Shown here: one piece after another, positions 22,672-45,068 of the stretch
Layout: every line of letters starts with the position of its first letter
Numbering within the stretch: the first letter of the stretch is position 1
Assembly: GCA_913061315.1 (NCBI GenBank)
Contig: CAJXUC010000001.1
Coordinates: forward strand, 72,197 to 136,196
Origin: an uncultured Gammaproteobacteria bacterium
Lineage (GTDB): Bacteria > Pseudomonadota > Gammaproteobacteria > GCA-001735895
Reading direction: 5' to 3'
Length of the DNA stretch: 64,000 bases
Translations under genes and position numbers: made by a program
The notes under the pieces: model-generated
The model's database searches: none
What the model was told of the DNA's origin: nothing
What the model saw: the letters and a program-made list of their open reading frames with translations, nothing else

Positions 22672-22690
22672 GTCATGCCCCTATAGCCAT

Positions 22691-27121: not shown

Positions 27122-27198
27122 GCCCTAAGCTATTCATAAGTGATTTATACGTCCGATTGCTAAACCCAATAGGCCGCCTACACAGTAGAGAAAAAATT

Positions 27199-29778
27199 AT
27201 GTTACAGATATACCGAGACCACACCGCTGAGCGCGCTTTAGAGGGTATTCCTCCGAAGCCCCTAAGTGCACAACAAACAGCTGATTTAATAGAGCTCTTT
27301 AAAGCACCCGCTGCCGGTGAAGAAAACTATATGCTGGAATTGTTAACCCAGCATGTGCCGGCAGGTGTTGATGAAGCTGCTTATGTTAAAGCAGGCTTCC
27401 TAGCTGCAATTAGTTCAGGTGAGACGACTTCACCATTAATTGATCCTGTAAAAGCAATCGAAATCTTAGGCTCTATGTTAGGTGGCTACAATATCCAGCC
27501 ACTGATTGCTGGTCTAGATAATGAAGCAACAGGCGTCGCAGCTGTAAAGGCGCTTTCACATACACTGCTTATGTTTGATGCCTTCTATGATGTAAAGGAA
27601 AAAGCAGATGCTGGAAATACTTACGCGAAGCAAGCTGTCGAGTCTTGGGCCAACGCCGAGTGGTTCACCAGCAAGCCATCACTAGAGAACAAGGTAACCG
27701 TCACAATATTTAAGGTACCGGGCGAAACCAATACCGATGACTTATCCCCCGCACAAGATGCTTGGTCGCGTCCAGATATTCCGTTACACGGCAATGCCAT
27801 GTTAAAAATTGTCCGTGAAGGTGTCGCTGAAAACCCATTAGAGACAATCAAAAAATTAAAGGAAAAAGGTTTTCCAGTCGCTTATGTTGGTGACGTTGTT
27901 GGCACTGGTTCTTCGCGTAAATCAGCCACTAACTCAGTACTTTGGCACATGGGCCAAGATATCCCTTTTATTCCTAATAAGCGCAACGGTGGTTATTGTT
28001 TCGGTACTAAAATTGCACCTATTTTCTTCAATACAATGGAGGACGCCGGCGCATTACCGATCGAAATGGACGTTTCAGAAATGGAAACTGGCGATATTAT
28101 CGACGTCTATCCTTTTGCCGGAAAAGCCACCAAACATGGTAGCGAGGAAGTCATCGCAACTTTTGAACTCAGCACCAACGTTTTAAAAGACGAAGTTCAA
28201 GCCAATGGTCGTATTCCTCTGATTATTGGTCGTGGTCTCACTGGTCGAGCGCGCGAATCTCTAGGCTTACCTGTCAGTGATGTATTTGAAGTGCCTGAAG
28301 CCAAAGAAGACAGTGGCAAGGGGTTTACTCTTGCTCAAAAAATGGTGGGTAAAGCGTGTGGCGTTACGGGTGTTCGTCCCAACATGTATTGTGAACCCAA
28401 GATGACTACGGTTGGCTCACAAGACACAACGGGGCCGATGACGCGAGACGAGCTGAAAGATCTAGCCTGCCTAGGTTTCTCTGCCGACCTAGTGATGCAG
28501 TCTTTTTGTCATACAGCCCCTTATCCTAAACCCGTTGATGTGATTACCCATCACACGTTGCCAGATTTTATCCAGACTCGTGGTGGCGTGTCGCTGCGGC
28601 CGGGAGACGGCGTCATTCACTCGTGGATGAATCGCATGTTACTCCCCGATACGGTCGGTACTGGAGGTGATTCACACACCCGTTTCCCAATCGGTATTTC
28701 TTTCCCTGCGGGTTCTGGTTTAGTAGCATTCGCTGCTGCAACCGGTGTTATGCCACTGGATATGCCTGAATCAGTTTTAGTTCGTTTTAAAGGCGAAATG
28801 CAGCCAGGTATTACATTACGTGACTTGGTAAACGCGATTCCATACTCAGCCATTCAACGTGGACTGTTAACGGTCGAAAAGAAAGGTAAAAAGAATGTTT
28901 TCTCTGGTCGTGTCCTCGAAATTGAAGGCTTACCCAAGCTCAAAGTTGAGCAAGCATTTGAGCTATCAGACGCCTCTGCAGAGCGATCAGCCTCGGGTTG
29001 TAGCGTTAAACTAGATAAAGAGCCCATCATCGAATATATGAACTCAAACATCACCATGTTTAAGTGGATGATTTATGAAGGTTATGGTGACGTGCGTACC
29101 ATCAAGCGCCGCATTGAAGAAATGGAAGCCTGGTTGGCAAATCCGATATTAATGGAAGCTGACAGTGATGCTGAATATGCTGAAATTATTGAGATTGATC
29201 TCAACGAAATCAAGGAGCCTTTGCTGGCTTGTCCGAACGATCCTGATGATGTTAAGACTCTGTCGGACGTTGCGGGGACTAAAATAGATGAAGTCTTTAT
29301 TGGTTCTTGCATGACTAATATTGGTCATTTTCGCGCAGCGGGTAAATTGCTCGAGAAATTAGAAGGCCCGGTGGCAACTCGACTCTGGATTGCACCACCT
29401 ACCAAAATGGACGAAGCGCAGTTAACTGCTGAAGGTTATTATAATATCTTTGGTCGCACTGGAGCTCGTACTGAAATGCCCGGCTGTTCACTGTGTATGG
29501 GTAATCAGGCTCGAGTTGCAGCCAACAGCACAGTGGTTTCGACTTCAACTCGAAATTTTCCCAATCGCTTGGGCGCTGGAGCTGATGTCTACTTGGCGTC
29601 AGCAGAGTTGTCGGCTGTTGCGTCCATTATGGGCAAAATTCCAACCATGGAAGAGTATATGGTTTACGCAAATGATATTAATACGATGGCTGAAGACGTT
29701 TATCGTTATCTCAACTTTAACGAAATGGACAGTTACATGACGGCAGCAGAAAGTGCTTTTCCAGTGGCCGTTGTTTAG
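27199..29778 (+). CDS. acnB: aconitate hydratase B / 2-methylisocitrate dehydratase
   Basis: Start taken at [22 protein letters not shown]…, matching the AcnB N-terminus by recall (MLEEYRKHVAERAAEGI.PKPL); the six-frame ORF begins 14 codons earlier. HEAT-like N-domain plus aconitase catalytic domains with Cys ligands. Confidence 0.9.
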
Positions 29779-29834: not shown

Positions 29835-30575
29835 CGGCAGTTAAAACAATAAATCAAGATCGTTACTGATGGTAAAGCAGGTTGGAAGGGCGCATCGGTG
29901 ACATGGCGCCTCTTTTAACCAATCCTTCAGAAAAGTCTTTAATGATGCACAAACTGGTACGCATGATTTGTAAGCTATATCCGCTAAAGAATAAAAACGG
30001 AAAGAAGTCTGGATGTAATTAACCATCGAATATGTATGTTTTCATTTTAGTGATTAAACTTTCTACACCTGAATTAGTTGGCCAACCTATATAATCAAAT
30101 CAATTTTAAATTCAGTTAAGCCAATTCAATTCGACCTAGCATTTCTACTGAAAATTTTATTCTAAGGCTAGACTCAGTGATTTTAACTTTTACTTAAAAT
30201 CGGTTAAATTAAAACAACACTCAGTCACATAACGAAACCTTCGAACTAGGCGTGCAACATAGTGCTGAGGGAACAAAAGGGTAGTCGTTTGTATCGCTAA
30301 TGAAACCATTGATGCCATTACACCTATTATCTGGTCGTAGAACATTATTTAAGTCATAGGTACAGCTGATGAAGTAACAGTGGGAAAGATTAATATAAAA
30401 GATGAAACTAATGATGGGCCTCAATTCTCAATAGGCAGTTTCAAATAATTTGGTTATGATTGAAAGTAGTCTTAAAGGTAAACACTGTTTCATACAGGCT
30501 AAATTGGTTTTATATTTGACCAATCAAAGCTGAAGGTAGATGTTTCCTTACTATCAGGTGGATAATATTCATTTT

Positions 30576-31613
30576 ATGACAAAACCCGCTCGCTCAAAGC
30601 TGACCCTCCGTGGAGAAAGAGTCACCATTGACTCAAATGAAGCCATTGATATAGTCAGTGCTATCTTTGAGAAAATTGGTTGCAATAAAAGAACGGCTCG
30701 TACCGTAGCTGAGCATCTGGCTGATACCAGCCTATGTGGGATGGAAAGCCATGGGCTGATGCGTACTCTTCAATACACTGAACAATTTCAGAACGGTTAT
30801 ATGGATCCATTTGCAGTACCCCGTATTGTCACGACACTGAGGGGTGCGCAAGAGGTTGATGGTTTTGGTGGCATCGGTATTCCAGCCATGAGTCTGGCCT
30901 ACCGACATGGCATGAAGATTGCCAAAAAAGCTGGAATATCTGCATTGGCGGTACGTAACGTTGGTCATACTGGTCGGCATGGTGCCTTTGCTGATGAAGC
31001 TGCAGAAGAGGGATTTTTAACCTTGTGTACTGGCGGAGGAAATCGAGAGATCTGGCGACAGGTTGCACCTCATGGTGGCGCAAAAGCCCTCCTGCCAACA
31101 AATCCCTGGTGTGCTGGTATTCCAGGAGGTGAGCAGGGTTCAGTGGTAATGGATTTTGCCACATCGAAAATCGCCGGAGGTTGGATTTATGCGGCACAAA
31201 GTGCTAACGCACTGTTACCGGAGGATTGTATCATTGATGCTAAAGGTAACCCCACACGAGAACCTGCGGACTATTTTAATGGAGGGGCGATTCTGCCTGC
31301 CGGTGAGCACAAAGGTTACGCACTGGCACTAATGGGTGAGTTAATCGGTGAAGCTATGCTTGGCCCATCAACAACAGAATGCAATTGGATATTGATTACA
31401 ATTGATACCAAGCGCTTTCGAGAACCCTCTGCGATGCGTTGCGTTGCTGAGGGATTGCTTGAAGAGTTACGCCAGTGTCCACCAGCATCAGGCTTTGAAC
31501 GAGTTGAAATCCCGGGAGAACGTGAGCGTGAATATCGAACCCAATCCAACGGAGCCATCTCCATACCAGAAGATACTTGGCAGCAGATTCTGGCGCTGCA
31601 GACAGCCCTGTAG
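30576..31613 (+). CDS. Ldh_2-family (malate/L-lactate/ureidoglycolate/sulfolactate dehydrogenase-type) NAD(P)-dependent oxidoreductase
   Basis: Start placed at MTKPARSKLTLRGERV…; the ORF extends to 30540. Family pattern: …AEHLADTSLCGMESHGLMR…, …VRNVGHTGRHGAFA…, …GGAKALLPTNPW…. Confidence 0.75.
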   Translation: MTKPARSKLTLRGERVTIDSNEAIDIVSAIFEKIGCNKRTARTVAEHLADTSLCGMESHGLMRTLQYTEQFQNGYMDPFAVPRIVTTLRGAQEVDGFGGIGIPAMSLAYRHGMKIAKKAGISALAVRNVGHTGRHGAFADEAAEEGFLTLCTGGGNREIWRQVAPHGGAKALLPTNPWCAGIPGGEQGSVVMDFATSKIAGGWIYAAQSANALLPEDCIIDAKGNPTREPADYFNGGAILPAGEHKGYALALMGELIGEAMLGPSTTECNWILITIDTKRFREPSAMRCVAEGLLEELRQCPPASGFERVEIPGEREREYRTQSNGAISIPEDTWQQILALQTAL

Positions 31614-31772
31614 CAAAACAAGGTGGGGTAATGGAGTCGCTATATTGCAAATAGCGATTAACAAATGGCTGAAAGTCAGGTTAACAGCGTGTGAAAGATT
31701 TTTTTAATGAGTTTATGTCTAAAAAAGTGAAGCAATTCTCGGTGCTGAAATTGCTGTTGGCCGATTAGGTTT

Positions 31773-33158
31773 CTAGCCTGAAAGCTTTTGGTGAACTGTA
31801 TCCAGTGCTAACTGATAGCGGTCAAACATGTCGTTAATCTGCGTTTCAGTTATTATCAGTGGTGGGCAAACACCCACACCATCACCCGGTAACGCACGCG
31901 TAATAAGGCCATGCTGACGCGCGGCAGCCATTACTTGTGCAGCAACTTTGTCACTGGGTGGGAATTGCTCCTTAGTCGATTTATCTTTGACGAGTTCGAA
32001 AGCACCAATTAAACCAATGCCTCGCGCATCACCAACTAAAGGATGCGATCCGAATTCGCCAATACGTTTCATGAACGTTTTAGAAACAGTTCGGACGTGT
32101 TCTAGCATATTGTCATCACGATAGATATTCAAGGTTTCTAGGGCTACCGCAGAGGCTACCGGGTGGCCGCCATAAGTATTGCCGGTCCCAAATACGCCAT
32201 GTGTGTTACTGCCACTAACAAAGGCATCGTACATTCTCTCACTGATCAGAACAGCACCAATAGGTTGATAAGCGGATGATAATTGTTTGGCGCAGGTAAT
32301 CATGTCTGGCTTGATGTTGTAGGTATCACAGCCCCACATGTTTCCAGTCCGGCCAAAACCACAAATGACTTCGTCAGCAACAAACAGGATGTTATGTTTT
32401 TTTAACACGGCCTGTACTTTTTCAAAATAATGGGCGGGTGGAATAAGAACGCCACCAGCACCCATAACCGGTTCAGCGAAAAACGCACCGATCGTATCTG
32501 GATCAGCATCAAGAATTTGCTGCTCAAGCTCATTCACGATGCGGTCGGTAAACTCGGCTTCACTTTCTCCATCCCGACCATTTCGATAATAATGGGGTGT
32601 TTCGCAATGCATCACGTCTATTGCGGGTAAATCAAATCCATTCTGTGCGTAAGGCAATCCAGTTAAGCTACCAGCGGCAACGGTAACACCATGATAAGAG
32701 CGTTTTCGAGCAATCAGGCGCTTCTTTTTGGGTAGTCCCAATGCGTTAAAATAATACCAGACCATCTTGATTGCAGAATCAACGGCTTCCGAACCAGAGT
32801 TAACTAAAAATGCACGGCTAATGCCTTCAGGTGCAATTTCCACCAATCGCTCACTGAGTTCAATGGCGGGTTGGGTCGAACGATGACTGAAAAGATGTGA
32901 ATAAGGTAATTTTTTAAATTGAGCCATTGCTGCATCAACCAAGCGGGATTCACTAAAACCCAACGAGGTACACCAAAGTCCAGACATGGCTTCGACTAGA
33001 CGATTGCCTTTATCATCATCAACATAGATACCCTCACCACCCACGATGGTGAAAGGTCCAAGGTCTTCGTGCCCACTGAGGTTGGTAAAAGGATGAAGAA
33101 CGTACTTCCTATCAGTATCTGCTGAGGTATTAGCTGAATTTGGGGCAGAATTATTCAC
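31773..33158 (-). CDS. class-III (omega-amino-acid:pyruvate-type) PLP aminotransferase
   Basis: Close collinearity with Vibrio-type omega-transaminases by recall (…NSGSEA.D…KMVW…; …FFAEPVMGAGGV…; …DEVICGFGRTGN.WGC…; PLP-lysine context TCAK). The six-frame ORF begins with TTG at 33188; a GTG at 33158 preceded by GGAG is the more likely start. Confidence 0.85.
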   Translation of the reverse strand: MNNSAPNSANTSADTDRKYVLHPFTNLSGHEDLGPFTIVGGEGIYVDDDKGNRLVEAMSGLWCTSLGFSESRLVDAAMAQFKKLPYSHLFSHRSTQPAIELSERLVEIAPEGISRAFLVNSGSEAVDSAIKMVWYYFNALGLPKKKRLIARKRSYHGVTVAAGSLTGLPYAQNGFDLPAIDVMHCETPHYYRNGRDGESEAEFTDRIVNELEQQILDADPDTIGAFFAEPVMGAGGVLIPPAHYFEKVQAVLKKHNILFVADEVICGFGRTGNMWGCDTYNIKPDMITCAKQLSSAYQPIGAVLISERMYDAFVSGSNTHGVFGTGNTYGGHPVASAVALETLNIYRDDNMLEHVRTVSKTFMKRIGEFGSHPLVGDARGIGLIGAFELVKDKSTKEQFPPSDKVAAQVMAAARQHGLITRALPGDGVGVCPPLIITETQINDMFDRYQLALDTVHQKLSG

Positions 33159-33432
33159 GATCAATCTCCGGTTAGTGCAACGAATCAATTTGATCCATCT
33201 GTTGGTAAAATGCGTCAGTTAAATAGACGCCTACTTTACCAGCAGTAAAATTAGCAGGCGGTTTCTGCAAAAGAGACTGCAAGACTTAGAGTATAAAACT
33301 TAAAGGCCCCTTATTCAAAGAATTATAAAAGGCCTGTTTACTAATACCAAATGGGTCAACTCAATGCATATTGGCAAACTGAGTTGAAAGCTATTGAATT
33401 CAATTGACGACTGATTTAGGTAAAAATTATCC

Positions 33433-34641
33433 TCATTTCCAAGGTTCTGGGCCCTCTGGTATAACTGTATTTTTACCACGAACAATATCACCCTGTTGAT
33501 CATACATTGGCAGTGAACATAGTTTTGCTCTATGAACCTCACCGTCAATGCACATCACATTAAGATCCGTGTCGGTAAATGTTCCATTATCGTCTAAACG
33601 GACAATTGCAACACCACATTGTTGAAAAGGAGACCAAGAAGAAGAAGTAACCATACCGATATTATTACCGTTAAATGTTAAGCTACGGCCTCGCTCAGCT
33701 ATGCTATCGTGAACTCGCATGCCGTAAGTTCGGTTTTTTTTATTCGATTTTTCCAAGGCTACACGTCCAATAAAATCAGCTTTTTCCATATTAATGAAAT
33801 GGCCTAGCCCCGCTTCAAAAGGTGTCGTCATCTCTCCAAAATCGGTATGGCTGAGTAATCCGGCTTCAATTCGGCGGGCACGGAATACCGGAGTACCTGT
33901 CAGCATCATTTGGTATTTCTGACCCAATTCCCAAATACGATTACCGATGGCCTCTGCGTCATTTTCGGGACGAAGGTAAAACTCCCAACCAAGTTCATTC
34001 GAAAAACCAGTCCGTGTAATAATAACGGGCTGGCCAGCAATGCTCACTTCAGCAATATCGAAGTAACGCCAAGGGTCGGGGAAATCATCATCAATCACAT
34101 CTTTTAATAAATCCATGGCTCGTGGACCTTGTACCTGACTAACCCAAACGTTGGGATCAGAAATAGTGACATCCAGATCACCTATATGAGCCATGTACCA
34201 CTTGGTCAGTTCACCATCGGCCTGGGCCATCCAGAACTTGTCTTCAGCCAGCCTTAACAAAACGCCATCATTAATCATACAACCATTATGATATAGCGCA
34301 AAATTATAGGAGCACCGACCCACTTTTACGCCACTGACGTCTCTTGCAAAGACACGGTCAGAAAATTTTTCAGCATCCGGTCCACTGATTTGAACGGGGA
34401 ATTCACCCGTATTCCGAAGGATTACTTTTTGACGAACGGCCCAGTATTGTTCGTCATCAGTCACATTGTTTAAATGCTCTGGCGTCATGCGGTTATTATA
34501 AAGCTGATATTCTGGATCAAAGGGTAACTCCAAATAAGATAAAGGATGCACCTTCATACCTGAGGCCAAATGATGAGGACGTGCCCCTTTGGCTGGCAAC
34601 GCTTTTATTGCGTAGCGTGATTTTACAATGTCATCATGCAT
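33433..34641 (-). CDS. GcvT/aminomethyltransferase-family folate-dependent protein (demethylase-like; DmdA-like hypothesis)
   Basis: 402 aa. Aligns block-for-block with GcvT (…ISGPDAEKF…VGRCSYNFALYHNGCMINDGVLLRLAEDKFW… vs GcvT …L.G…FL…DV.KL..GKA.YS.MLN..GGVIDDLIVYY..ED.F…; …TRTGFSNELGWEFYL vs TTGYTGEAGYEIAL; …RIEAGLLSHTDFGE vs RLEAGMNLYGQEMDE). No P/H/L glycine-cleavage partners nearby. Confidence 0.8.
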   Translation of the reverse strand: MHDDIVKSRYAIKALPAKGARPHHLASGMKVHPLSYLELPFDPEYQLYNNRMTPEHLNNVTDDEQYWAVRQKVILRNTGEFPVQISGPDAEKFSDRVFARDVSGVKVGRCSYNFALYHNGCMINDGVLLRLAEDKFWMAQADGELTKWYMAHIGDLDVTISDPNVWVSQVQGPRAMDLLKDVIDDDFPDPWRYFDIAEVSIAGQPVIITRTGFSNELGWEFYLRPENDAEAIGNRIWELGQKYQMMLTGTPVFRARRIEAGLLSHTDFGEMTTPFEAGLGHFINMEKADFIGRVALEKSNKKNRTYGMRVHDSIAERGRSLTFNGNNIGMVTSSSWSPFQQCGVAIVRLDDNGTFTDTDLNVMCIDGEVHRAKLCSLPMYDQQGDIVRGKNTVIPEGPEPWK

Positions 34642-34767
34642 AGTAAGGGACCGTCAATATTTAATTAGTGTGTTAATAAATTGAGCTGGCGTAATACTAG
34701 TTATGCCAGTAGCTTGAGTTGGAAAAGCAAGTGGTTGGCCAAATTAATCTTAATATCAGTCATTTAC

Positions 34768-35853
34768 TCACTCGTTGATTAATGGTTTAAAAGAAGTATT
34801 GATGCGATTGATAATTGTCCAGATAAAGTTGGCTCTAGCCCCGCCAAGAAGGTCTTTAGCTTTGTTGCGCTGCTTTGCTTCGCGTAATTCATAGTCAATA
34901 GCACGGTTAAGATCATGGCCTATATTCAATGCAATCTGACCAGGTCAATATAATCGCAGTTGCGCCATAGTTTTAGACAGTGTGTCGTCATACTAACCGT
35001 GACCCGATTACAAATTTCAAGCAGGCACGGATTTTTACAAGCTGCATCAGAAAAGGTCTCTTCTCGTCTGGTGTCATATCCTGCCAGAACCATCTTGTGC
35101 TTCACGGAGGGCCTCAAGCATGGCGTGCTTGCCATGGCAGCTTGTGTGAAATTTATGTTGTACTGATTCAAAAATATAGTCTGAACTGGGTTCATACCAC
35201 ATTGCCGGTTTATGAGCCTCACTGGCATGCGTTGTAGAAAAGCCCTGAAGCGTATTAATGGTATCTGGGTTGGTGAAAAAACCATCTGCGGTTAGGATGG
35301 CTACCTCAATCCCATTTGAAGCTGCCATATCTGCAGGATAGGGTTTACCCATTGTGCCAAATTGGGCCTCGATGCCTGGATTACGGGTCGCACAAAGTCC
35401 AAGGGCGTGAGTTGTCTGCTCAACACTCAATTCCAGAATTCGACAGGCTACTTCAGAGTCAATCAAACCAGCATCAATAAAATTATCGATCGAATTAAGG
35501 CCTATTTTTTCAGCCGTCGCCATTACAGCTGGTATGACAGCAACGCTCGGATGGCCAAAATTAAGAAAGTGTGTATCGTCGTAATGGAATGGGTGAGAGA
35601 TTGCGCCGTTATAAAGAGCTGCAGCACGTGCAGATAACGTCACCCGACTGCCAATAATACTGGCCTGCGGTGAACCGCCTTCGTCAAGTAGCATTTGGAG
35701 AACGATTCGGCTGACTGGCTCATCACGCCCAACGATAACAACTGTAATCCAGTCTCTTAAAGATAATTCCGCTATCTTACGAGCGCTTTTCGGGGTCAAC
35801 GTGCGTTTAGTGTTAATCGCAAAAGTAGCAATTTTCTGGCTAATACCCATCAA
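34768..35853 (-). pseudogene. MmgE/PrpD-family (2-methylcitrate dehydratase-like) gene interrupted by at least two frameshifts
   Basis: ORF 35074-35853 carries the MmgE/PrpD N-domain (…LSLRDWITVVIVGRDEP…GHPSVAVIPAVMATAEKIG…HKFHTSCHGKHAMLEALREA) and stops. The reading continues in a second frame (ORF 34926-35285) and then a third frame (…IGHDLNRAIDYELREAKQRNKAKDLLGG…* ending ~34768). Confidence 0.55.
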
Positions 35854-35877
35854 GCGTAGACTATTCAGTGAGGCTAT

Positions 35878-37035
35878 TTAATAAGATCGCGGCATGCCCA
35901 GCACATGTTCGGCAAGGTAGCTGAGTATCATATTGGTCGAAATCGGAGCAACTTGATATAAGCGCGCCTCACGAAATTTGCGTTCAATATCGTATTCCAC
36001 CGCAAAACCAAAACCACCGTGAGTCTGCACACAAGCTTCAGCTGCCGCCCAAGAAGCATCAGCCGCTAACATTTTAGCCATGTTAGCTTCCTCACCTGGA
36101 TTACCACCAGACTCATAGAGGCGAATGGCTTCTCTTAATACCAATTCTGCTGCACGCATTTCTGCATAAGCTTTTGCAATTGGAAACTGCACACCTTGGT
36201 TCTGACCAATTGGCCTGCCAAAAACCGTGCGTTCACTGGCGTAACGGCTGGAGGTATCAGTGAACCATTTGGCATCACCAATACACTCAGCGGCAATAAG
36301 AATACGTTCGGCATTCATGCCAGAAAGAATATAACGAAAGCCCTTACCCTCTTCACCAATAAGGTTCTCAGCTGGCACCCTCACATCGTCAAGAAATACT
36401 TCAGTGGTGGAGTGGTTCATCATGGTTTTTATTGGACGAATGGTAAGTGAATTTTCATCGCAATCGCGCATATCAACGAGTAGCACAGACAGGCCATCTG
36501 TTTTTTTCGCAACTTGATCTAGGGGTGTAGTTCGGCACAATAACAACATTAAGTCTGAATGTTCCGCACGCGAGGTCCAAATTTTCTGACCGTTAACAAT
36601 ATAGTCATCACCGTCTCGTCGAGCCGTAGTGCGCAGTGCAGTGGTATCGGTGCCACTACTGGGTTCAGTTACGCCAAAGGCTTGAAGTCGCAAGCTACCA
36701 TCGGCGATACCGGGCAAAAAGCGTTGTTTTTGTTCTTCTGACCCATGACGTAATAAAGTACCCATAGTATACATCTGTGCGTGGCAGGCGGCTGCATTGC
36801 AACCCTCGTGATGAATAGTCTCGAGGATCGCAGAAGCTGCCGAAATAGGTAATTCTGATCCGCCATAAGTTTCAGGTATTAACGCCGCTAAATAGCCTGA
36901 TTCTGTAAGTGCTTGCACGAATTCGATTGGATAGGCTTGTGTTTGATCTTTTTTGCGCCAATAAGCGCCATCGAAGTCTTTGCATAGCCGGCGCAATCCT
37001 TCTCTAATTTCTTCATGGTCAAGTTCATATTTCAT
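35878..37035 (-). CDS. acyl-CoA dehydrogenase family protein
   Basis: 385 aa ACAD fold (…LRLQAFGVTEPSSGTD…, …GEEGKGF…, C-terminal four-helix bundle with catalytic Glu region …YQVAPISTNMI…). Its ATG overlaps the stop of the upstream CoA-transferase by 1 nt. Confidence 0.88.
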   Translation of the reverse strand: MKYELDHEEIREGLRRLCKDFDGAYWRKKDQTQAYPIEFVQALTESGYLAALIPETYGGSELPISAASAILETIHHEGCNAAACHAQMYTMGTLLRHGSEEQKQRFLPGIADGSLRLQAFGVTEPSSGTDTTALRTTARRDGDDYIVNGQKIWTSRAEHSDLMLLLCRTTPLDQVAKKTDGLSVLLVDMRDCDENSLTIRPIKTMMNHSTTEVFLDDVRVPAENLIGEEGKGFRYILSGMNAERILIAAECIGDAKWFTDTSSRYASERTVFGRPIGQNQGVQFPIAKAYAEMRAAELVLREAIRLYESGGNPGEEANMAKMLAADASWAAAEACVQTHGGFGFAVEYDIERKFREARLYQVAPISTNMILSYLAEHVLGMPRSY

Positions 37036-38195
37036 TATTTGGTACCTAATGGGCTGAATTCAGTTCTAAGTGAATCACCCTGTTGATTTAACAAGGGCAC
37101 AATTTTAGGACGTGCCACATCGGTTTTCACGGGCAGATCCGCCATTTTAATGGTGACTGCACCAAACTGTGCTTCAAACTCACGTAAAAATTCATGTTCA
37201 GACAAGTCATCGACACTGCTCAATTGACCGCAAGCAATTTTATTCAGGTTAAGTAATTCGATCAGCTCAACTCGGGTCTTTTGAGAAAATAGAGCGTCGA
37301 TCGTTTGGTGTACCTCATCGCGATTAGCGACACGGTCCGTGTTGTCTTTAAATCGCGGGTCATCAGCCAGCTCAGGTTGGCAAAGCACCGTTTCGCAAAA
37401 AACTCGCCATTCCCGATTACTCTGAATCGCGATCAAAACTTGAGCCTCATCTCGACTAGTGAAAGCACCATAAGGTGCAATTAATGCATGCGTCAGGCCG
37501 AGTCGCTTCGGAGCACCACCAAAATAACGTTGTGCCATCAGCGGCATGTTCATCCAGTCTGCCATTACATCAAACATCGAAATTGATAAGTCAATGCCTT
37601 CACCAGTTCGACTGCGTTGTAATAAGGCACGTAAAATCGCCGAAAATGCGGTTAAACCTGTACCGATGTCACAGATTGATATGCCAACGCGTGTCTCATC
37701 TTCGGCCGTGCCCGTTACCGAACAAATGCCGCTCTCGGCTTGCACTAAAAAGTCATAAGCTTTTTTATTGGCTGCAGCACCAGAGTTACCATAGCCATTA
37801 ATTTCACAACAAATTAATTTCGGGTTTTGCTGACGTAGGGTGTCACCATTGAACCCACGCCGTGCTAAAGCACCGGGTGCAAGATTGTGTAAAAAAACAT
37901 CGGCCTCACGCAGCATATTAAGCAACAAGTCAACATCCTCCGTCTGGTTAAGGTCGATACAAATCGATTCCTTACCACGGTTAAGCCAAGCGAATATACT
38001 GCTATTACCATCGGCACCGCGGTCATAGGCTCGCGCAAAATCGCCTTCTTTTCGTTCGACTTTAAGCACTCTGGCACCCGCATCCGCCAGCAGCAAACCA
38101 CAATAAGGTGCCGAGACAGCTTGCTCGATAGAAACCACTAAAAAGCCATCAAGTTCGCGATTAAGTCCCATACATTTCCCCATTAGACAGAACAT
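37035..38195 (-). CDS. family-III CoA-transferase (CaiB/BaiF/Frc/itaconate-CoA-transferase type)
   Basis: CoA-transferase III signature N-terminus (…LDGFLVVSIEQAVSAPYCGLLLADAGARVLKVERKEGDFAR…) and interlocked-dimer fold length. The start may be the internal MGLNREL (38171). Confidence 0.85.
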   Translation of the reverse strand: MFCLMGKCMGLNRELDGFLVVSIEQAVSAPYCGLLLADAGARVLKVERKEGDFARAYDRGADGNSSIFAWLNRGKESICIDLNQTEDVDLLLNMLREADVFLHNLAPGALARRGFNGDTLRQQNPKLICCEINGYGNSGAAANKKAYDFLVQAESGICSVTGTAEDETRVGISICDIGTGLTAFSAILRALLQRSRTGEGIDLSISMFDVMADWMNMPLMAQRYFGGAPKRLGLTHALIAPYGAFTSRDEAQVLIAIQSNREWRVFCETVLCQPELADDPRFKDNTDRVANRDEVHQTIDALFSQKTRVELIELLNLNKIACGQLSSVDDLSEHEFLREFEAQFGAVTIKMADLPVKTDVARPKIVPLLNQQGDSLRTEFSPLGTK

Positions 38196-38288
38196 AAAGA
38201 CTATGCGTGATTGGGATCAATATAAATATTAGAAACTATAGATAGGTGCGATAACATTTGATGATACCAAGATTGACGATTAAACTCA

Positions 38289-39218
38289 GTGGTTATGGAT
38301 CTTAAACAAATTAAAACATTTATTTGCGTCGCAGAGTCAGGCTCCTTAAGCAGGGCATCAGACCGGCTACACACAGTTCAGCCAGCGTTATCGCGCCAAA
38401 TTAAACTGCTTGAACATGAAATTGGAGTCGACTTGTTTACCCGCCATGTGCGCGGTATGGAATTGACGGAAGCAGGACAGGCATTTTTCGATAGAATGAC
38501 GGGACTTGTACGTCAAATTGAAACCTCAGTGCATGACATTCAATCCATGCGAGGGAAAATAAAAGGGCACGTGGCACTTGGCATTATGCCAACTATTAGC
38601 ACCGTATTGTCGGTCAGACTAATGCGGCGAGTAAAAGAAGAGTTCCCTGATATAGAGTTACGTATTGTAGAAGGTTACTCAGTCCATCTGCTCGAATGGC
38701 TTCAGCGTGGTGATATCGATGTAACGTTTCAGTATGGTTCCTCAAGTGATTATCATTTGCGCAGCGAAGACATGTTGTTCGAAGACATCGTGCTAATCAG
38801 TGCACCCAATTCACTACCTGAGATATCAGCTGAAGTCAGCCTCGAAGCCGCCTCAAAATTGCCCTTGGCGTTACCCAGTGAATCTTTTGGTTTACGACGC
38901 GTGCTCGAATCAGCCGGCGCCGCCAACGGTGTCTCAATTACACCAAGCTATCAAGTCGACTCATTTTGGGTGATAAAGTCACTGGTAGAGTCAGGTATAT
39001 GTCATTCACTCATGCCGGTTTCATCAGTTTTAGAGCAGGTCGAGGCAGGTTTAATTGAGACCCGACAGATCACACCACCAATCCAACGCCAGATTGTTTT
39101 ACTGACACCGAATGACCGTGTCAATACTCGGGCGACGGATGCCGTCATAGGTTTGTTAAAAAAAGAAGTGGATGAGATGATAGCTTGTGGAGAATGGCCT
39201 GCGGTCGCTATTTCATAG
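38289..39218 (+). CDS. LysR-family transcriptional regulator (divergent from the CoA-transferase operon)
   Basis: 309 aa. N-terminal LysR wHTH (…LKQIKTFICVAESGSLSRASDRLHTVQPALSRQIKLLE…) plus LysR substrate-binding domain. Confidence 0.88.
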   Translation: MVMDLKQIKTFICVAESGSLSRASDRLHTVQPALSRQIKLLEHEIGVDLFTRHVRGMELTEAGQAFFDRMTGLVRQIETSVHDIQSMRGKIKGHVALGIMPTISTVLSVRLMRRVKEEFPDIELRIVEGYSVHLLEWLQRGDIDVTFQYGSSSDYHLRSEDMLFEDIVLISAPNSLPEISAEVSLEAASKLPLALPSESFGLRRVLESAGAANGVSITPSYQVDSFWVIKSLVESGICHSLMPVSSVLEQVEAGLIETRQITPPIQRQIVLLTPNDRVNTRATDAVIGLLKKEVDEMIACGEWPAVAIS

Positions 39219-39355
39219 TTTGAAGTAAAGTCTGTTAAAAACGTAGGGTTCTATTATCAAATAATGGCATAGTGAGGTTAACCCCATTCTATTTGTATTA
39301 TGTTAATTTGTGCTCATAATCCTAACACTTGATAATTTACTCTCGGTGCACACTG

Positions 39356-40222
39356 ATGAATGTCGAACAACGCCCGGTTAAATCACGCAGAAGCTTTATT
39401 TTTTCACCGGGACTTAAGCCAGAAATGTTTCCTAAAGCACTCGCTTCAGGTACCGATATTGTTTGTGTAGAACTAGAAGATGGCATCGCGCCCAAAGACA
39501 AATCAGAAGCTCGCCTTAAAGCATTGCAACTATTCGAAACCCCTCAAGCAGATGACGGTGTTGAGCGAATTGTGCGCATTAACAGCATGCGAGAATCATT
39601 TGGTATTGCGGATGTGCAAGCGATTCTGGCCACTAAGACACCACCGCCTGCTCTGATGATGCCCAAGGTTAAAAATTCAGATGAAGTTATTATGTTGGAT
39701 AATTTGCTAACCGAGGCTGGACATGACACGCGACTACATATCATCATCGAAACCAATGCTGGGCTAGAAGCCTGCTTTGACATTGCCCATTGCAGCCCTC
39801 GAATCGACGCGTTATTTTTTGGTGGTGTCGATATGGCTGCCGAATTGAGATGTGAAAACGCTTGGCAACCATTGCTTTACGCGCGCTCGCGGGTTGTTCA
39901 TGCCGCTGCTTCCGCGGGGCTTGATGTGGTCGATGTTCCCTTTCTGGACTTAAACGATCCTGAAGGTATGGTTTTAGAAGCGCAACAAGCAAAATCGTTG
40001 GGTTTTTCTGGAAAAGGGTCGATTCACCCAAAACAAATTGCCGAACTGAATGCTGTTTTCACCCCAACGGATGAATCAATAGCCCGTGCGAAACGAATTA
40101 TTGAAACCTTTGAAGAAGCCGACACGGGGTTGGTTGTGATCGATGGTAAACTCATTGAGAAACCAGTATTAAGGGACATGTACCGCATACTTGCTATTGC
40201 TGCCGCAGCCCAAAAAAGCTAA
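39356..40222 (+). CDS. CitE-like / HpcH-HpaI-family acyl-CoA lyase (citrate-lyase beta, malyl-/citramalyl-CoA lyase-like)
   Basis: Start at MNVEQRPVKSRRS…; the ORF extends to 39329. CitE-like pattern: …SFIFSPG…, …DIVCVELEDGIAP.DK…, …HIIIETN.GL…, …FGG.DMAAEL…. Confidence 0.78.
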   Translation: MNVEQRPVKSRRSFIFSPGLKPEMFPKALASGTDIVCVELEDGIAPKDKSEARLKALQLFETPQADDGVERIVRINSMRESFGIADVQAILATKTPPPALMMPKVKNSDEVIMLDNLLTEAGHDTRLHIIIETNAGLEACFDIAHCSPRIDALFFGGVDMAAELRCENAWQPLLYARSRVVHAAASAGLDVVDVPFLDLNDPEGMVLEAQQAKSLGFSGKGSIHPKQIAELNAVFTPTDESIARAKRIIETFEEADTGLVVIDGKLIEKPVLRDMYRILAIAAAAQKS

Positions 40223-40289
40223 AAATCAAAGCTTAAAAAGCTAAACTAAAAATCAAACCATTAAAACCTGTACCTAGAAGGAGTAACCA

Positions 40290-41093
40290 GTGTCATTACC
40301 CTCCAAACATTACGAAACACTGTTAGTAACTGCTGCAGCAGAACACGTATTGCAAATCACCTTAAATCGGCCTGAATCATCGAACGCGTTTAATACACAC
40401 ATGGCACGTGAGATGATCGAGCTAATTGAAGGGCTTTCACTCGACCCTGAAGACAACCGCTGTATTTTACTCACAGGGGCTGGTGAGCGCGCTTTTTGTG
40501 CCGGTGGTGACTTGAAGGAACGTAAAGGCATGACCGATCAAGACTGGGGCAAACAGCATTTGACATTCGAACGCATGGTGCGCGCCATAATCAATAGCCC
40601 GACCCCGATTATTGCCGTGATTAACGGCGCAGCCTACGGTGGTGGATGCGAACTAGCAGGTGCGGTTGATTTTGCATACGCGTCTGACAATGCACGTTTT
40701 GCACTAACCGAAACCTCATTGGGAATTATTCCAGGCGCTGGAGGTACCCAAACACTGGCAAGAGCAATGGGCGAGCGACGTTGCAAGGAGTTAATCCTTA
40801 GCGCAAAACCATTCAGCGCCACCGAGGCATTGCAATGGGGTCTTCTCAATGCAGTCTACCCACTCGCTGATCTATTACCCGCAGCACTTGGTGCCGCAAA
40901 ACGAATTGCTGCCAACGCGCCCATTGCGGTAAGGCAAGCAAAACAATCGATTCATCGGGGTCTGCAAATGTCTTTAGCCGATGGTCTGGCATTCGAAATA
41001 GAAGCTTATAATCGTACCGTTCCAACTGATGATCGCTATGAAGGTGTGCTGGCCTTCAACGAAAAACGTAAACCACAATTTAAGGGGCGTTAA
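40290..41093 (+). CDS. enoyl-CoA hydratase/isomerase (crotonase superfamily)
   Basis: 267 aa. Crotonase oxyanion-hole segments (…LLTGAGERAFCAGGDLKE…, …IAVINGAAYGGGCELAGAVDFAYAS…) and catalytic Glu context (…TETSLGIIPGAGGTQ…). Confidence 0.88.
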   Translation: MSLPSKHYETLLVTAAAEHVLQITLNRPESSNAFNTHMAREMIELIEGLSLDPEDNRCILLTGAGERAFCAGGDLKERKGMTDQDWGKQHLTFERMVRAIINSPTPIIAVINGAAYGGGCELAGAVDFAYASDNARFALTETSLGIIPGAGGTQTLARAMGERRCKELILSAKPFSATEALQWGLLNAVYPLADLLPAALGAAKRIAANAPIAVRQAKQSIHRGLQMSLADGLAFEIEAYNRTVPTDDRYEGVLAFNEKRKPQFKGR

Positions 41094-41098
41094 TTAAA

Positions 41099-42016
41099 AT
41101 GACGGATCTAGCAACGGTAAGGGAAGTTGGCCTGCGTGATGGACTGCAATTAGTTAAACGCACATTGCCAACTGATATAAAAATTGAATGGTGCCAAACA
41201 CAGGCAGCCTGTGGCTTTAGAGAAATGGAGGTGACCTCTTTCGTGCCACCTAAAGTCATTCCACAATTTGCCGACGCTGAGTCTGTTTTAAAAGCCGCTC
41301 AATCTATCAGCAATATGCGCGCAGCGGTATTAGTACCCAACCTGAAATGGGGGTTACAGGCACTGGATCATGGCGCTAAAAAGATTACCTTTGTATTGTC
41401 AGTCAGTGAAGCCCACAACATGGCTAATGTTAGACGCACTACCGACACGTCGATTGCCGAGTTTTCCGAATTGATTGCTGAACGTAATTGCAGAGGACTG
41501 CAAGACAGCGTGATGATGTCCGTGGCATTGGCCACGACCTTCGGTTGTAGTTTACAGGGTGAAGTAGCCGAACCGCGTGTCTACAATGTTGCCGAGCAAG
41601 TGCTCATGGCTGGCGCGCAGGAGCTCAATATGGCAGACACCGTGGGTTATGGTAACCCTATACAGGTTAAACGAATATTTACTGAAATCTTGCAATTGGC
41701 GGATAAAGTGCAGGTAGCAGCTCATTTTCATGATACCCGAGGCATGGGCCTTGCCAACGCAGTCGCAGCGCTTGAAGCCGGTGTGCGCGAATTTGATGCG
41801 TCGCTTGGCGGTCTTGGGGGCTGTCCGTTTGCGAAAGGAGCCTCTGGCAATATCGCCACGGAAGATTGTGTTTATCTGTTGGAAAGTCTTGGTTTTGCAA
41901 CCGGTATTAATATTCTAGCAATGCTTGAAGTACGCAAAAATCTGAAGGACTGGTTACCCGACGAGCCACTAGAAGGCAAGTTATTAAAGGCAGGTTTAGC
42001 GGCCACGTTTGAATGA
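41099..42016 (+). CDS. HMG-CoA-lyase-like (DRE-TIM metallolyase) acyl-CoA lyase
   Basis: 305 aa. HMGL family (…VREVGLRDGLQ…, …HFHDTRGMGLANAVAALEAG…, …GGLGGCPFAKGASGNIATED…). Starts 6 nt after the crotonase gene. Confidence 0.85.
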   Translation: MTDLATVREVGLRDGLQLVKRTLPTDIKIEWCQTQAACGFREMEVTSFVPPKVIPQFADAESVLKAAQSISNMRAAVLVPNLKWGLQALDHGAKKITFVLSVSEAHNMANVRRTTDTSIAEFSELIAERNCRGLQDSVMMSVALATTFGCSLQGEVAEPRVYNVAEQVLMAGAQELNMADTVGYGNPIQVKRIFTEILQLADKVQVAAHFHDTRGMGLANAVAALEAGVREFDASLGGLGGCPFAKGASGNIATEDCVYLLESLGFATGINILAMLEVRKNLKDWLPDEPLEGKLLKAGLAATFE

Positions 42017-42607
42017 TTTTTAAAACAATTTAGGCGATAAAGATTTTATTTTTTTCTCAAATGCGATGAATTTATCGCAAGAATAATGTCGATGGCTTTA
42101 ATTTTCCAGCGGTGTCGTAAAGTATCAAAAAAATGATTAGCGTGATTATTAATTTTGCAAAATTACTATTTAATTTAGACTAAAAGTGGTTGTTTAGTTT
42201 TTACTCAATCAACCTAACCCAAACATATAAACATGACAAAATTGAATAATACAAAGATTAGATATTCTCATAAAATAGGCTGTCAGTAATAAGGCTATAA
42301 TCTAAGGTTTACTGGGCGGGTAGTTGAGACGTACCCTTTATTTTAGTAATCAGTATAGCCTTCATCTTGACTGCATCCACGCCGTTACGATGCGCTTCTT
42401 TATCTACAGATTGAGAACCCCTCTGTTGGACTCTAAACCATAGTTCTAAAAAACTAGCCCTATTAAATATTAAGCTCAAACCCACGCCTATTAGTGTTGT
42501 GCAATTTGGGTTATAAACTACTCACCATTACACGATAAGGCTTGGAAAATGATTCTTAGCTAAACTAATATTTAATAATTTTCTCTATTGAGTTAGGCAA
42601 TAATTGA

Positions 42608-43150
42608 TGCAGAGGGCAATATCTTTTGACTGGTGGCATTGAACCTTACAAACACATGCGGCCTCCATTAATGGGCAGGATTGCGAGTGAAGATTTTTAT
42701 ATGTTTACTGCAGCAGGCCTTGCTAGTGGCACAGCTACGATAATTGATTTCATTATCCTTGGATCAGAACAATCTTTGATAGATGTCTATCATCAATGGA
42801 TGGACAGGGTAGAAAAGTCGGTCTCAGATTATAGCTTTCATGTTGTGGTAACTTGGTAGAATGATGGTTTTTATGAAGGTATGGGTAAATTCGTCCGTAA
42901 ACATAACTTTAATAGTTTTTAGCATTTTATGGCTTATCAGAATGTTAATATTGCAACTGATGAAACGATGGTGAACAGCTATAGCAGGTCGTTAGAGCTT
43001 GGTGCCTTAATGACAGCTTATGCTGGAAACGGCAAACTTGTGTTCCAGCTACAAAAGAAGGTGTTAGAAATGGACATTACAGGTGCAGAGGGTTATCTAA
43101 TGTCACATAATCCCGAGGTTGAAGGCGAAGTTGCAAAATGTGCCATATGA
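42608..43150 (+). pseudogene. hydantoinase/dihydropyrimidinase pseudogene (N- and C-terminally truncated, frameshifted, catalytic His motif mutated)
   Basis: Two fragments, 42626-42859 and 42929-43150. TGGIEPYKHMRPPLMGR…GTATIIDF…SDYSFHVVVTW aligns with PGGIDPHTHLEMPFMGT…GGTTMIIDF…CDYSLHVAVTW, so PHTH has become PYKH. …LGALMTAYAGNGKLVFQLQKKVLEMDITGAEGYLMSHNPEVEGEVA aligns with …GALVTVHAENGD.I..LQ.KLL..GITGPEGHALSRPPEVEAEA. There is an in-frame stop at 42605, no ATG, and no C-terminal half. Confidence 0.8.
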
Positions 43151-43243
43151 ATTGCATAGACGCTTGATGTAGTTATTTATCTAGCACACGTTTGAACTCA
43201 AGCAGCGTTTGAATCTATAGATAAAAAAATCGGAGAAATCAAA

Positions 43244-44524: not shown

Positions 44525-44605
44525 CTAAAAACTGAGTTTATGAGCATGAGTCAAATACAACTGACGGCGGACATTTAAACGACGCGTCTTAATGCCGACG
44601 AATAT

Positions 44606-44870: not shown

Positions 44871-45068
44871 AGGATCATCGGCCTGTGAGCCTTGGTTTAC
44901 AACAGTGCCGTGCGGTCGATATAGTGAAGTTGATGCCCGCACCGGGAGAGTTGTAACTAGGAAATATTCCAAATTGTACGACACATGAAAATAATACTAT
45001 GAGAGTGAGTTAACTTTTGATACAACAGCTAGGTAAAAGATAATAGTTATAAAAATTAAGATAGAGAG

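Follow-up and report, generated by a model that had tools for sequence, protein, structure and literature searches.

We analyzed a 64,000-nucleotide stretch of DNA from an uncultured gammaproteobacterium (GenBank assembly GCA_913061315.1, contig CAJXUC010000001.1, positions 72,197 to 136,196; hereafter the window), in which genes for coenzyme A (CoA)-ester metabolism lie on both sides of a LysR-type regulator. On balance, we favor the reading that they specify a LysR-controlled pathway for methylsuccinate/mesaconate-type acids, in which an (RS)-methylsuccinyl-C4-CoA dehydrogenase (Mcd) would be combined with a crotonase/HMGL branch through (R)-citramalyl-CoA and a RipC-like (S)-branch, and which is partly decayed in this genome. 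HMGL here denotes a lyase of the 3-hydroxy-3-methylglutaryl-CoA (HMG-CoA) lyase family. Families were called by Pfam and NCBIfam profile searches of the open reading frames (ORFs) of the window, and start and stop junctions were read from the sequence. All ten protein families named in an initial annotation of this DNA were recovered at the same positions by ORF listing and profile searches. That annotation called the region composite, but the arrangement is not a one-off: more than a dozen loci, drawn from different classes, have the same genes in a conserved order, and it represents a recurrent marine cluster type, found in marine Gamma- and Alphaproteobacteria and on a Paraburkholderia plasmid.

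In the proposed pathway, a family-III CoA-transferase (CoAT) would attach CoA, with succinyl-CoA as the probable donor, to methylsuccinate at the C4 carboxyl, as its family and its coupling to the acyl-CoA dehydrogenase (ACAD) suggest. The ACAD would then oxidize methylsuccinyl-C4-CoA to mesaconyl-C4-CoA, a role supported by its resemblance to the Pseudomonas enzyme PA0879 and by its canonical acyl-pocket segments. By analogy with methylglutaconyl-CoA hydratase, the crotonase would hydrate mesaconyl-C4-CoA to (R)-citramalyl-CoA, and the HMGL, by analogy with HMG-CoA lyase, would cleave this product to acetyl-CoA and pyruvate. The RipC-like CitE may add an exit for (S)-citramalyl-CoA (or malyl/beta-methylmalyl-CoA). 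In intact relatives, a PrpD-family enzyme carrying the full two-base epimerase residues would act before these steps. Gene linkage further suggests that a GcvT-family protein, accompanied in relatives by a Zn-dependent alcohol dehydrogenase (Zn-ADH) and an aldehyde dehydrogenase (ALDH) resembling betaine-aldehyde dehydrogenase (BADH), or by a Rieske oxygenase, most likely belongs to an upstream feeder branch that removes a methyl group from a methylated precursor.

Under the Cahn-Ingold-Prelog rules, (S)-HMG-CoA and (R)-citramalyl-CoA are spatially alike, and mesaconyl-C4-CoA is the lower homologue of (E)-3-methylglutaconyl-CoA. Because of this shared spatial arrangement, (R)-citramalyl-CoA is the intermediate to be expected from enzymes of these two families, which would make the crotonase/HMGL pair the stereochemical mirror of the MaoC-type hydratase Ich and the CitE-type lyase Ccl. 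The initial annotation had likened the region to clusters that degrade itaconate, mesaconate or citramalate. A C5-dicarboxylate is retained as the substrate in our reading, and itaconate as the best candidate is not: since itaconyl-CoA isomerase/hydratase (Ich) is absent, we prefer methylsuccinate and consider itaconate an improbable substrate. Methylsuccinate is also the best fit to the combination of CoAT, ACAD and PrpD in the light of Gonner et al. 2025 (PMC12290011).

The dehydrogenase and CoA-transferase resemble those of C5-dicarboxylate clusters

The CoAT (37035-38195, minus strand; Pfam CoA_transf_3, 316 bits) and the 385-residue ACAD (35878-37035, minus strand; four ACAD domains) share one base between stop and start codon, in the sequence TAATG at 37037-37033. 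This overlap, reported in the initial annotation, is real, and the ACAD is thus predicted to be translationally coupled to the CoAT.

The comparison that bears most directly on function is with PA0879, which was characterized biochemically as (RS)-methylsuccinyl-C4-CoA dehydrogenase, Mcd (Gonner et al. 2025, PMC12290011). The PA0879 sequence that we used, taken from the published supplement, had dropped letters, and it was therefore aligned with a frameshift-tolerant method; over 349 codons the window ACAD is approximately 62% identical to it. By the same method, the ACAD of a canonical roseobacter cluster is 81% identical to PA0879. We also aligned 27 ACADs from clusters of three architectures, named Ich-, ECH/HMGL- and DmdA-type after their distinguishing genes (ECH, crotonase-fold enoyl-CoA hydratase). 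Of the 385 columns, 107 are invariant and a single one separates the Ich-type ACADs from the ECH/HMGL- and DmdA-types. The acyl-pocket segments CHAQMYTMG, GMNAERILIAAECIGD and RLYQVAPISTN are common to ACADs of all cluster types, the segment with the catalytic Glu included. Because there is only one group-specific column and these segments are shared with canonical clusters, we propose that the window ACAD be treated as an Mcd.

A tblastn search of plasmids found ACAD homologues at 63-78% identity in several phyla, and their contexts are unmistakably those of C5-dicarboxylate metabolism. The homologue of Phaeobacter lies in the order LysR<->MaoC-ACAD-CaiB-CitE-TRAP-VOC, where TRAP is a tripartite ATP-independent periplasmic transporter; that of Thermus is accompanied by CitE, the alpha and beta subunits of fumarase, CaiB and MaoC; that of Palleronia lies in class-I fumarase<->CoAT-ACAD-PrpD; and that of Cupriavidus metallidurans in ACAD-PrpD-MaoC.

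For the CoAT, the best NCBIfam scores all fall below their cut-offs (oxalate, 218 bits; succinate-glutarate, 209 bits; succinyl-CoA:mesaconate CoA-transferase, 189 bits). Its identity to CoATs from ECH/HMGL- and DmdA-type clusters is 55-80%, and its 90% cluster at JGI bears the automatic label 'itaconate CoA-transferase'. Gonner et al. 2025 (PMC12290011) found (R)-methylsuccinate and itaconate to be the preferred substrates of the family-III CoA-transferase in the Pseudomonas/Cupriavidus cluster. We propose that the window CoAT is an Ict-like succinyl-CoA:methylsuccinate (C5-dicarboxylate) CoA-transferase.

A crotonase and an HMGL stand in place of the canonical hydratase and lyase

Divergent from the CoAT-ACAD operon, and beyond an AT-rich control region (38196-38294) that was read directly from the sequence, lies the LysR-type regulator (38289-39218, plus strand; HTH_1 and LysR_substrate domains; probable start ATG 38295). 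It is followed on the plus strand by a CitE/HpcH-type acyl-CoA lyase (39329-40222; HpcH_HpaI/CitE domain; probable start ATG 39356), the crotonase-fold ECH (40290-41093; ECH_1, 232 bits) and the HMGL (41099-42016; HMGL-like domain). The initial annotation was right that the hydratase is crotonase-type rather than MaoC-type: tblastn with three Ich/MaoC proteins found no match to a MaoC/hotdog hydratase anywhere in the 64-kb window. It was equally right that both a CitE-like and an HMGL-like lyase are present, as the profile searches confirm.

The crotonase keeps both catalytic Glu motifs, GGGCEL and LTETSLG. Its nearest structure is 3kqf (215 bits), with the methylglutaconyl-CoA hydratase AUH behind at 164 bits, and its best NCBIfam model is the generic enoyl-CoA hydratase PRK07657 (275 bits, below the cut-off). 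Its synteny with HMGL and CoAT-ACAD extends to at least 12 loci. By analogy, we propose that it acts as a mesaconyl-C4-CoA hydratase giving (R)-citramalyl-CoA. The HMGL retains the catalytic motifs RDG, HFHDTRG (with the HxH metal site) and GGCP, and its best match in the Protein Data Bank (PDB) is 6nds at 246 bits, compared with 165-195 bits for other solved HMG-CoA lyases (2ftp, 165). We propose, again by analogy, that it is an (R)-citramalyl-CoA lyase yielding acetyl-CoA and pyruvate.

For the CitE protein, the best equivalog model is NCBIfam RipC_Ccl (263 bits, under the cut-off of 375), and its best PDB match is 3qll (187 bits), deposited as 'Citrate lyase', which we take to be Yersinia RipC. 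It is 70-87% identical to the CitE proteins of the marine clusters that we call types B and C below, whereas its identity to the CitE in the Ich-type cluster of Phaeobacter is only 29%. A RipC/Ccl-like role as (S)-citramalyl-CoA (or malyl/beta-methylmalyl-CoA) lyase is proposed for it.

The MmgE/PrpD gene is a pseudogene

The MmgE/PrpD gene of the window (34645-35853, minus strand) is a pseudogene, the remnant of an Msi-like 2-substituted-succinate isomerase/epimerase. The initial annotation had its family and position correct but missed that the gene is dead. Only 259 codons are open, as an MmgE_PrpD_N fragment at 35074-35853, and alignment to the intact 441-residue orthologue of a related locus (L097) is confined to residues 1-283. 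About 31 residues have been lost in frame, including the NHYQTGFH segment with the catalytic Tyr and His; HPFH stands where HALD is conserved; and the C-terminal third now falls in other reading frames. Metagenome contigs that are nearly identical in all else have an open frame of 258 or 307 residues.

What the intact enzyme might do is suggested by PA0881, an MmgE/PrpD protein identified as (S)-(R)-methylsuccinate isomerase, and by the substrates on which the PrpD family acts, 1,4-dicarboxylates built on a succinate backbone (Gonner et al. 2025, PMC12290011). The intact PrpDs of relatives keep the full H, D, H, Y, H, K, K set of iminodisuccinate (IDS) epimerase and Msi, second-base Tyr included, and this conserved set fits an epimerase/isomerase acting on a 2-substituted succinate. 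With its PrpD dead, this genome could admit at most one enantiomer to the pathway, and the gene records the ongoing loss of part of that pathway.

The cluster type recurs in marine proteobacteria

Our survey covered loci retrieved with the CoA-transferase alignment together with loci around its close homologues, each designated by an L number. Three architectures can be distinguished. Type A is Pseudomonas-like, with the order LysR<ACAD>CoAT>Ich(hotdog)>CitE, as in Marinobacter and Phaeobacter. Type B, to which the window belongs, has the order [Zn-ADH<]HMGL<ECH<LysR<CoAT>[ALDH>]ACAD>PrpD>[GcvT], with or without CitE, and is carried by uncultured gammaproteobacteria (L097-L099, L007), Pelagibius, Hyphomicrobiales, Paracoccaceae, Roseovarius and SAR116/Puniceispirillales. 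Pelagibius sp. Alg239-R121 and Roseovarius sp. MMSF_3359 are cultured bacteria with an intact cluster. A reordered type B resides on a Paraburkholderia terrae plasmid with genes for an electron-transfer flavoprotein (ETF), ETF-quinone oxidoreductase (ETF-QO) and a major facilitator superfamily (MFS) transporter. Type C, GcvT>CoAT>ACAD>CitE, is found in metagenome-assembled genomes (MAGs) of Arenicellales and Acidiferrobacteraceae, with flanking genes that resemble dimethylglycine dehydrogenase (DMGDH) and choline kinase; alpha/beta-hydrolase and PhyH genes also occur around these type-C clusters.

The divergent LysR<->CoAT layout is kept in L007, L008, L025, L026, L027, L044, L097 and L098, and the LysR is 45-84% identical to the regulators at the same position in related loci. 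Carboxylate transporters of the TRAP or MFS type accompany related clusters; their TRAP binding protein has no close solved relative, its best match reaching 71 bits. Literature searches found no published description of the ECH/HMGL variant cluster.

A GcvT-family gene and neighbors of the DMSP type

The GcvT-family folate-binding protein (33433-34641, minus strand; GCV_T and GCV_T_C domains) belongs to a 403-residue subfamily conserved at approximately 60-80% identity in many marine bacteria. It is not a canonical DmdA, the demethylase of dimethylsulfoniopropionate (DMSP): it scores 186 bits on the DmdA model (cut-off 410) and is 31% identical to the bona fide DmdA of L017. It is remote from all solved relatives, the nearest being the GcvT domain of trimethylamine N-oxide (TMAO) demethylase at 127 bits and DmdA at 115 bits.

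Because this subfamily follows ACAD-PrpD genes in several gene orders, the GcvT gene is a recurrent member of the cluster type and not a passenger, in agreement with its inclusion in the initial annotation. A gammaproteobacterial relative has the order PrpD-ALDH-GcvT and Puniceispirillales the order PrpD-GcvT; three Rhodobacteraceae genomes have PrpD<LysR>ECH>HMGL>DctPQM>ADH>ALDH>GcvT, and one contig has PrpD<Ich<ACAD>GcvT. One member of the subfamily is an exception, without the cluster nearby. A metagenome scan with the GcvT-subfamily alignment gave 38 loci having at least 3 kb of upstream sequence. An Mcd-type ACAD, usually with PrpD, CoAT, ECH and HMGL, lies directly upstream of GcvT in 14 of them, another 10 have the ADH-ALDH pair only, and the other 14 show neither. 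We propose that the window protein is a tetrahydrofolate-dependent demethylase or C1-acceptor protein feeding the pathway.

The linkage extends to established DMSP genes in related loci, an observation that adds to the initial annotation. In SAR116-like contigs, CoAT>ACAD>PrpD>GcvT>Rieske>ECH2>DddP are co-directional with short gaps (L148 5263-13533; also L140, L150, L151, L155, L156 and L157). The DMSP lyase DddP of this block passes its equivalog model (675 bits, cut-off 600), and the Rieske protein is GbcA-like (172 bits, cut-off 670). In type C (L015, L017, L019 and L021; approximately 8.7-13 kb), the GcvT-family gene lies directly upstream of CoAT-ACAD-CitE, and that of L017 is a bona fide DmdA (527 bits, cut-off 410). 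The ALDH of type B is most similar to betaine-aldehyde dehydrogenases (530-540 bits, below the cut-off). Together, these neighborhoods argue that the marine Mcd-type module is tied to demethylation of a methylated compound and to DMSP genes.

Further genes of this kind occur beside type-B clusters. Next to a Rhodobacteraceae cluster, L103 (11330-19533) carries a LysR, an AidB-type ACAD of 549 residues, a 380-residue GcvT-family gene, an ADP-forming acyl-CoA synthetase and a molybdopterin oxidoreductase, a second gene set that is possibly an alternative DMSP-demethylation-like cluster. In L007 (15545-21134), an MTTB-family methyltransferase and two DMGDH-like (DAO-FAO_M-GCV_T) genes stand beside a type-B cluster that lacks PrpD, CitE and GcvT.

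These associations invite a broader reading, which we offer tentatively and regard as rather doubtful. The window would hold a copy, now decaying, of a marine pathway that is widespread but undescribed. In it, a dedicated GcvT demethylase and either Zn-ADH/BADH-like ALDH or the GbcA-like Rieske protein would make a 2-substituted succinate out of an abundant methylated algal metabolite, for example a betaine-type hydroxy-acid or a sulfonium related to DMSP; PrpD epimerization, the Mcd-type ACAD and crotonase/HMGL cleavage via (R)-citramalyl-CoA would then follow. If this were true, the cluster, being adjacent to dmdA and dddP, would connect the cycling of DMSP-type osmolytes with the metabolism of branched C5-dicarboxylates in SAR116, Arenicellales, roseobacters and the window's own lineage of uncultured gammaproteobacteria. 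Literature searches for GcvT or DddP linkage, or for methylsuccinate together with DMSP, found nothing. The homarine operon (PMC13236597) was compared and is unrelated. Gonyol, gamma-butyrobetaine/carnitine, S-(methylthio)succinate, homoserine/aspartate betaine and a propionyl-CoA plus glyoxylate route were considered as ideas, none of which had direct support.

Alternative explanations

Several points weigh against the methylsuccinate/mesaconate reading. The enzyme roles in the marine cluster type are assigned from sequence. The identity of the ACAD to PA0879 is an approximate figure because of the dropped letters, and PA0879 itself has a modest catalytic efficiency with methylsuccinyl-CoA, approximately 4 s-1 mM-1 (PMC12290011), which may leave room for another preferred substrate. 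The CoAT is only 40-49% identical to the CoATs of canonical Ich-type clusters, and the intact type-B PrpDs only 30-37% identical to PA0881 and Cupriavidus necator Msi. We know of no crotonase-type mesaconyl-CoA hydratase; those known to us are MaoC-type. Catabolism of methylsuccinate would leave the recurrent linkage to GcvT, ADH/ALDH, Rieske, DddP and DmdA unexplained. Finally, the HMGL passes PRK05692, the generic, subfamily-level HMG-CoA-lyase model of NCBIfam (276 bits, cut-off 246), so HMG-CoA could be its true substrate.

That last score also speaks for a C6 route, in which 3-methylglutarate, 3-methylglutaconate or HMG would be degraded via 3-methylglutaryl-CoA (made by a SUGCT-like CoAT) and 3-methylglutaconyl-CoA (made by the ACAD), and a genuine methylglutaconyl-CoA hydratase and a genuine HMG-CoA lyase would yield acetoacetate and acetyl-CoA. 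The CoAT matches structures of succinate-hydroxymethylglutarate CoA-transferase (156 bits) as well as the succinate-glutarate model already mentioned, the Paraburkholderia version of the cluster has HMGL without CitE, and the crotonase finds its best matches in the generic PRK07657 model and the Bacillus-type structure 3kqf, with AUH further down. We nevertheless consider this route unlikely. The ACAD has no group-specific differences from ACADs in C5-specific contexts, where the partners are a MaoC-type Ich and a CitE-type Ccl or a class-I fumarase/mesaconase; the accompanying PrpD family takes dicarboxylates with a succinate backbone (PMC12290011); the RipC-like CitE of the window would have no role; and the HMGL is far weaker against most solved HMG-CoA lyases than against 6nds. 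The same two families, crotonase and HMGL, also recall LiuC and LiuE of leucine/isovalerate degradation (liu), and CoAT, ACAD and crotonase match the families of CaiB, CaiA and CaiD of carnitine metabolism (cai), two assignments that we find hardly credible. Genes for methylcrotonyl-CoA carboxylase subunits, or for any biotin carboxylase or carboxyltransferase, are found in neither the window region nor any syntenic locus; the isovaleryl-CoA dehydrogenase model gives 25 bits (cut-off 545), and CaiA, CaiB and CaiD give 155 (cut-off 540), 96 (cut-off 413) and 155 (cut-off 500) bits. The missing carboxylase and isovaleryl-CoA dehydrogenase genes and the low equivalog scores lead us to reject both pathways. 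Orthology and synteny, which the initial annotation had named as the check, thus join crotonase and HMGL to CoAT-ACAD-PrpD and never to methylcrotonyl-CoA carboxylase or isovaleryl-CoA dehydrogenase.

The DMSP-type neighbors could instead mean that the whole cluster is an organosulfur or onium route, with GcvT demethylating DMSP or a related sulfonium or betaine, the CoAT, ACAD and crotonase acting as analogues of DmdB, DmdC and DmdD on the thioether acid (or of CaiB, CaiA and CaiD on a betaine), and the lyases cleaving the hydrated product. The true DmdA upstream of CoAT-ACAD-CitE in Arenicellales-type loci, the co-directional block with DddP in SAR116-like contigs, the BADH-like ALDH, the MTTB and DMGDH-like genes adjoining L007 and the neighbors of L103, whose DmdC-/DmdA-like identity is our reading, all point this way. 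We think such a route quite unlikely, since the ACAD is of the same enzyme type as the Pseudomonas Mcd, and the PrpD family needs a succinate-type dicarboxylate and the CitE type an alpha-hydroxy-carboxylate. Bona fide DmdC is a larger, AidB-type ACAD, and the 385-residue ACAD of the window therefore does not fit its size class. The DmdA, CaiA, CaiB and CaiD equivalog models are far below cut-off on window proteins, and adjacency to DMSP genes may reflect shared ecology, as marine oligotrophs often pack unrelated osmolyte genes together. It is very unlikely, in our view, that the genes are merely unrelated units side by side, with CoAT-ACAD a minimal methylsuccinate unit, CitE-ECH-HMGL part of another pathway, and GcvT, the transaminase and the Ldh_2 dehydrogenase independent. 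Many loci do have CoAT-ACAD alone or with CitE only, L097 lacks ECH, the transaminase and Ldh_2 are not conserved neighbors, and 14 of the 38 GcvT metagenome loci show neither the cluster nor ADH/ALDH. Against this, ECH-HMGL is tied to CoAT-ACAD-PrpD around a common LysR in Alpha-, Beta- and Gammaproteobacteria, in at least three arrangements, and the GcvT subfamily comes after ACAD/PrpD genes in at least four gene orders.

Relation to known systems and possible significance

Sasikaran et al. reportedly described the itaconate degradation cluster of Pseudomonas (Ict, Ich, Ccl) in 2014. The initial annotation held that the window resembles this cluster without being a copy of it, and our results agree: the ACAD is close to PA0879 and has homologues in canonical clusters, and the CitE is nearest to RipC/Ccl. 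Like the Pseudomonas/Cupriavidus itaconate-methylsuccinate cluster (Ict, Ich, Ccl, Mcd, Msi), the window has a divergent LysR, a family-III CoAT beside an Mcd-like ACAD, an MmgE/PrpD gene directly after the ACAD and a CitE-type lyase, and the expected products are acetyl-CoA and pyruvate. It differs in having a crotonase and an HMGL instead of the MaoC/hotdog Ich, in the low identity of its RipC-like CitE to the canonical roseobacter CitE, and in a GcvT-family gene that belongs to its cluster type. Its PrpD is of a type distant from Msi and a pseudogene, and the functional Msi beside Mcd is not found here.

The pairing of lyases has a parallel in Chloroflexus aurantiacus, in which Friedmann et al. 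are said to have found in 2007 an HMGL-family (R)-citramalyl-CoA lyase, forming acetyl-CoA and pyruvate, alongside a CitE-type (S)-specific lyase. By description, the window pairs these same two lyase families, but the Chloroflexus lyase serves the autotrophic 3-hydroxypropionate bi-cycle. LiuC and LiuE (3-methylglutaconyl-CoA hydratase and HMG-CoA lyase) are the same two families, adjacent in the same order and with the same catalytic motifs kept. Here they occur without the carboxylase and isovaleryl-CoA dehydrogenase, their synteny partners are CoAT-ACAD-PrpD, and the lyase scores 165 bits against 2ftp and 246 against 6nds. The DMSP demethylation pathway DmdA-DmdB-DmdC-DmdD likewise brings together a GcvT-family protein, a CoA-activating enzyme, an ACAD and a crotonase, and true DmdA or DddP is adjacent in related loci. 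The window cluster departs from it in a GcvT that fails the DmdA model, a CoA-transferase instead of a ligase, an ACAD of Mcd type instead of the larger AidB type, and the additional PrpD and two C-C lyases.

It was not until 2025 that the Pseudomonas cluster was given a role in degrading methylsuccinate (Gonner et al. 2025, PMC12290011). Where methylsuccinate-type acids come from in the environment is still debated. In abundant marine clades, this dehydrogenase keeps different enzymatic company, a crotonase and an HMGL instead of Ich and Ccl, and the same conversion would thereby have a second solution of mirrored stereochemistry. Two activities for which few or no genes have been assigned gain candidates from the cluster: mesaconyl-CoA hydratase of the crotonase type and (R)-citramalyl-CoA lyase in a heterotroph. 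The repeated physical association of the cluster with a distinct GcvT subfamily and with dmdA/dddP points to a methylated substrate in the labile carbon and sulfur pool of the ocean.

Genomic setting and neighboring genes

The G+C content of the cluster is 0.435-0.477, compared with approximately 0.43 typical of the window, and no mobility genes were seen flanking it. With this unremarkable base composition and no such flanking genes, 'island' is to be read as gene cluster: the region is a metabolic gene cluster and not evidently horizontally acquired DNA. Exact-match look-ups placed identical proteins on between 19 and 73 contigs in marine metagenomes of Tara Oceans, JGI and ENA, and close relatives carry the labels uncultured Gammaproteobacteria or Candidatus Azotimanducaceae. 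On identical contigs, gene callers chose later starts for the LysR (307 residues), CitE (288 residues, MNVEQ...) and the transaminase (461 residues). Scans for consensus promoters and terminators gave fewer matches than in shuffled sequence and are for that reason uninformative.

Two genes that the initial annotation had placed in the island alongside GcvT do not share its recurrence. The class-III (omega) aminotransferase (31773-33188, minus strand; Aminotran_3; NCBIfam PRK06105, 663 bits, cut-off 517) directly follows GcvT only in the window's own lineage (L105, L106), lies 6.5 kb away in L107 and is absent from other related loci; it is a neighbor of uncertain relation, not a conserved cluster member. 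Convergent with it is the Ldh_2-family 2-hydroxyacid dehydrogenase (30540-31613, plus strand; Ldh_2, 277 bits), which is syntenic only within the same lineage, scores far below all NCBIfam equivalog cut-offs (malate/lactate/ureidoglycolate, 185 bits; L-sulfolactate dehydrogenase, 143 bits) and probably has a separate function. In near-identical contigs, its equivalent is split into 154 and 168 residues (L005 16584-17657) or shortened to 301 residues (L006 16747-17652), which reflects either gene decay in the population or assembly error.

Upstream of the cluster lie a TRAP transporter, a methylcitrate operon of the AcnD/PrpF type, gltA and acnB. The transporter (14670-18590, plus strand) comprises a DctP binding protein (14670-15875) and DctQ and DctM fused in a single 824-residue membrane protein (16116-18590). 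Because its binding protein is only 27% identical to that embedded in related type-B clusters, it cannot be assigned to the C5 pathway. The methylcitrate operon for propionyl-CoA is complete (18878-25476, minus strand), with prpF (18878-20071), acnD (20077-22671), prpC (22691-23839), prpB (23877-24824) and a GntR/FCD regulator (24778-25476), and is followed on the plus strand by gltA (25820-27121) and acnB (27157-29778).

Downstream of HMGL, in the 42017-45600 region, a 1.2-kb stretch with only small called ORFs (58-77 residues) precedes an M20 peptidase (43244-44524), then more small ORFs and a DMT/YdcZ membrane protein (45624-46085). A Bmp-type ABC transporter is also found downstream, with the M20 peptidase, and unrelated M20 peptidases occur near several type-B clusters (L016, L028, L033). 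Where the window has Ldh_2, its closest relatives with an intact cluster have genes for a histidinol-dehydrogenase-family protein, a split thiamine pyrophosphate (TPP)-dependent enzyme and an FMN-dependent dehydrogenase (L097 17794-21134; L098 12539-15390), a combination that we take to be typical of 2,3-dihydroxypropane-1-sulfonate (DHPS)/sulfolactate metabolism. With such flanks, these regions look like mosaics of catabolic modules for algal metabolites.

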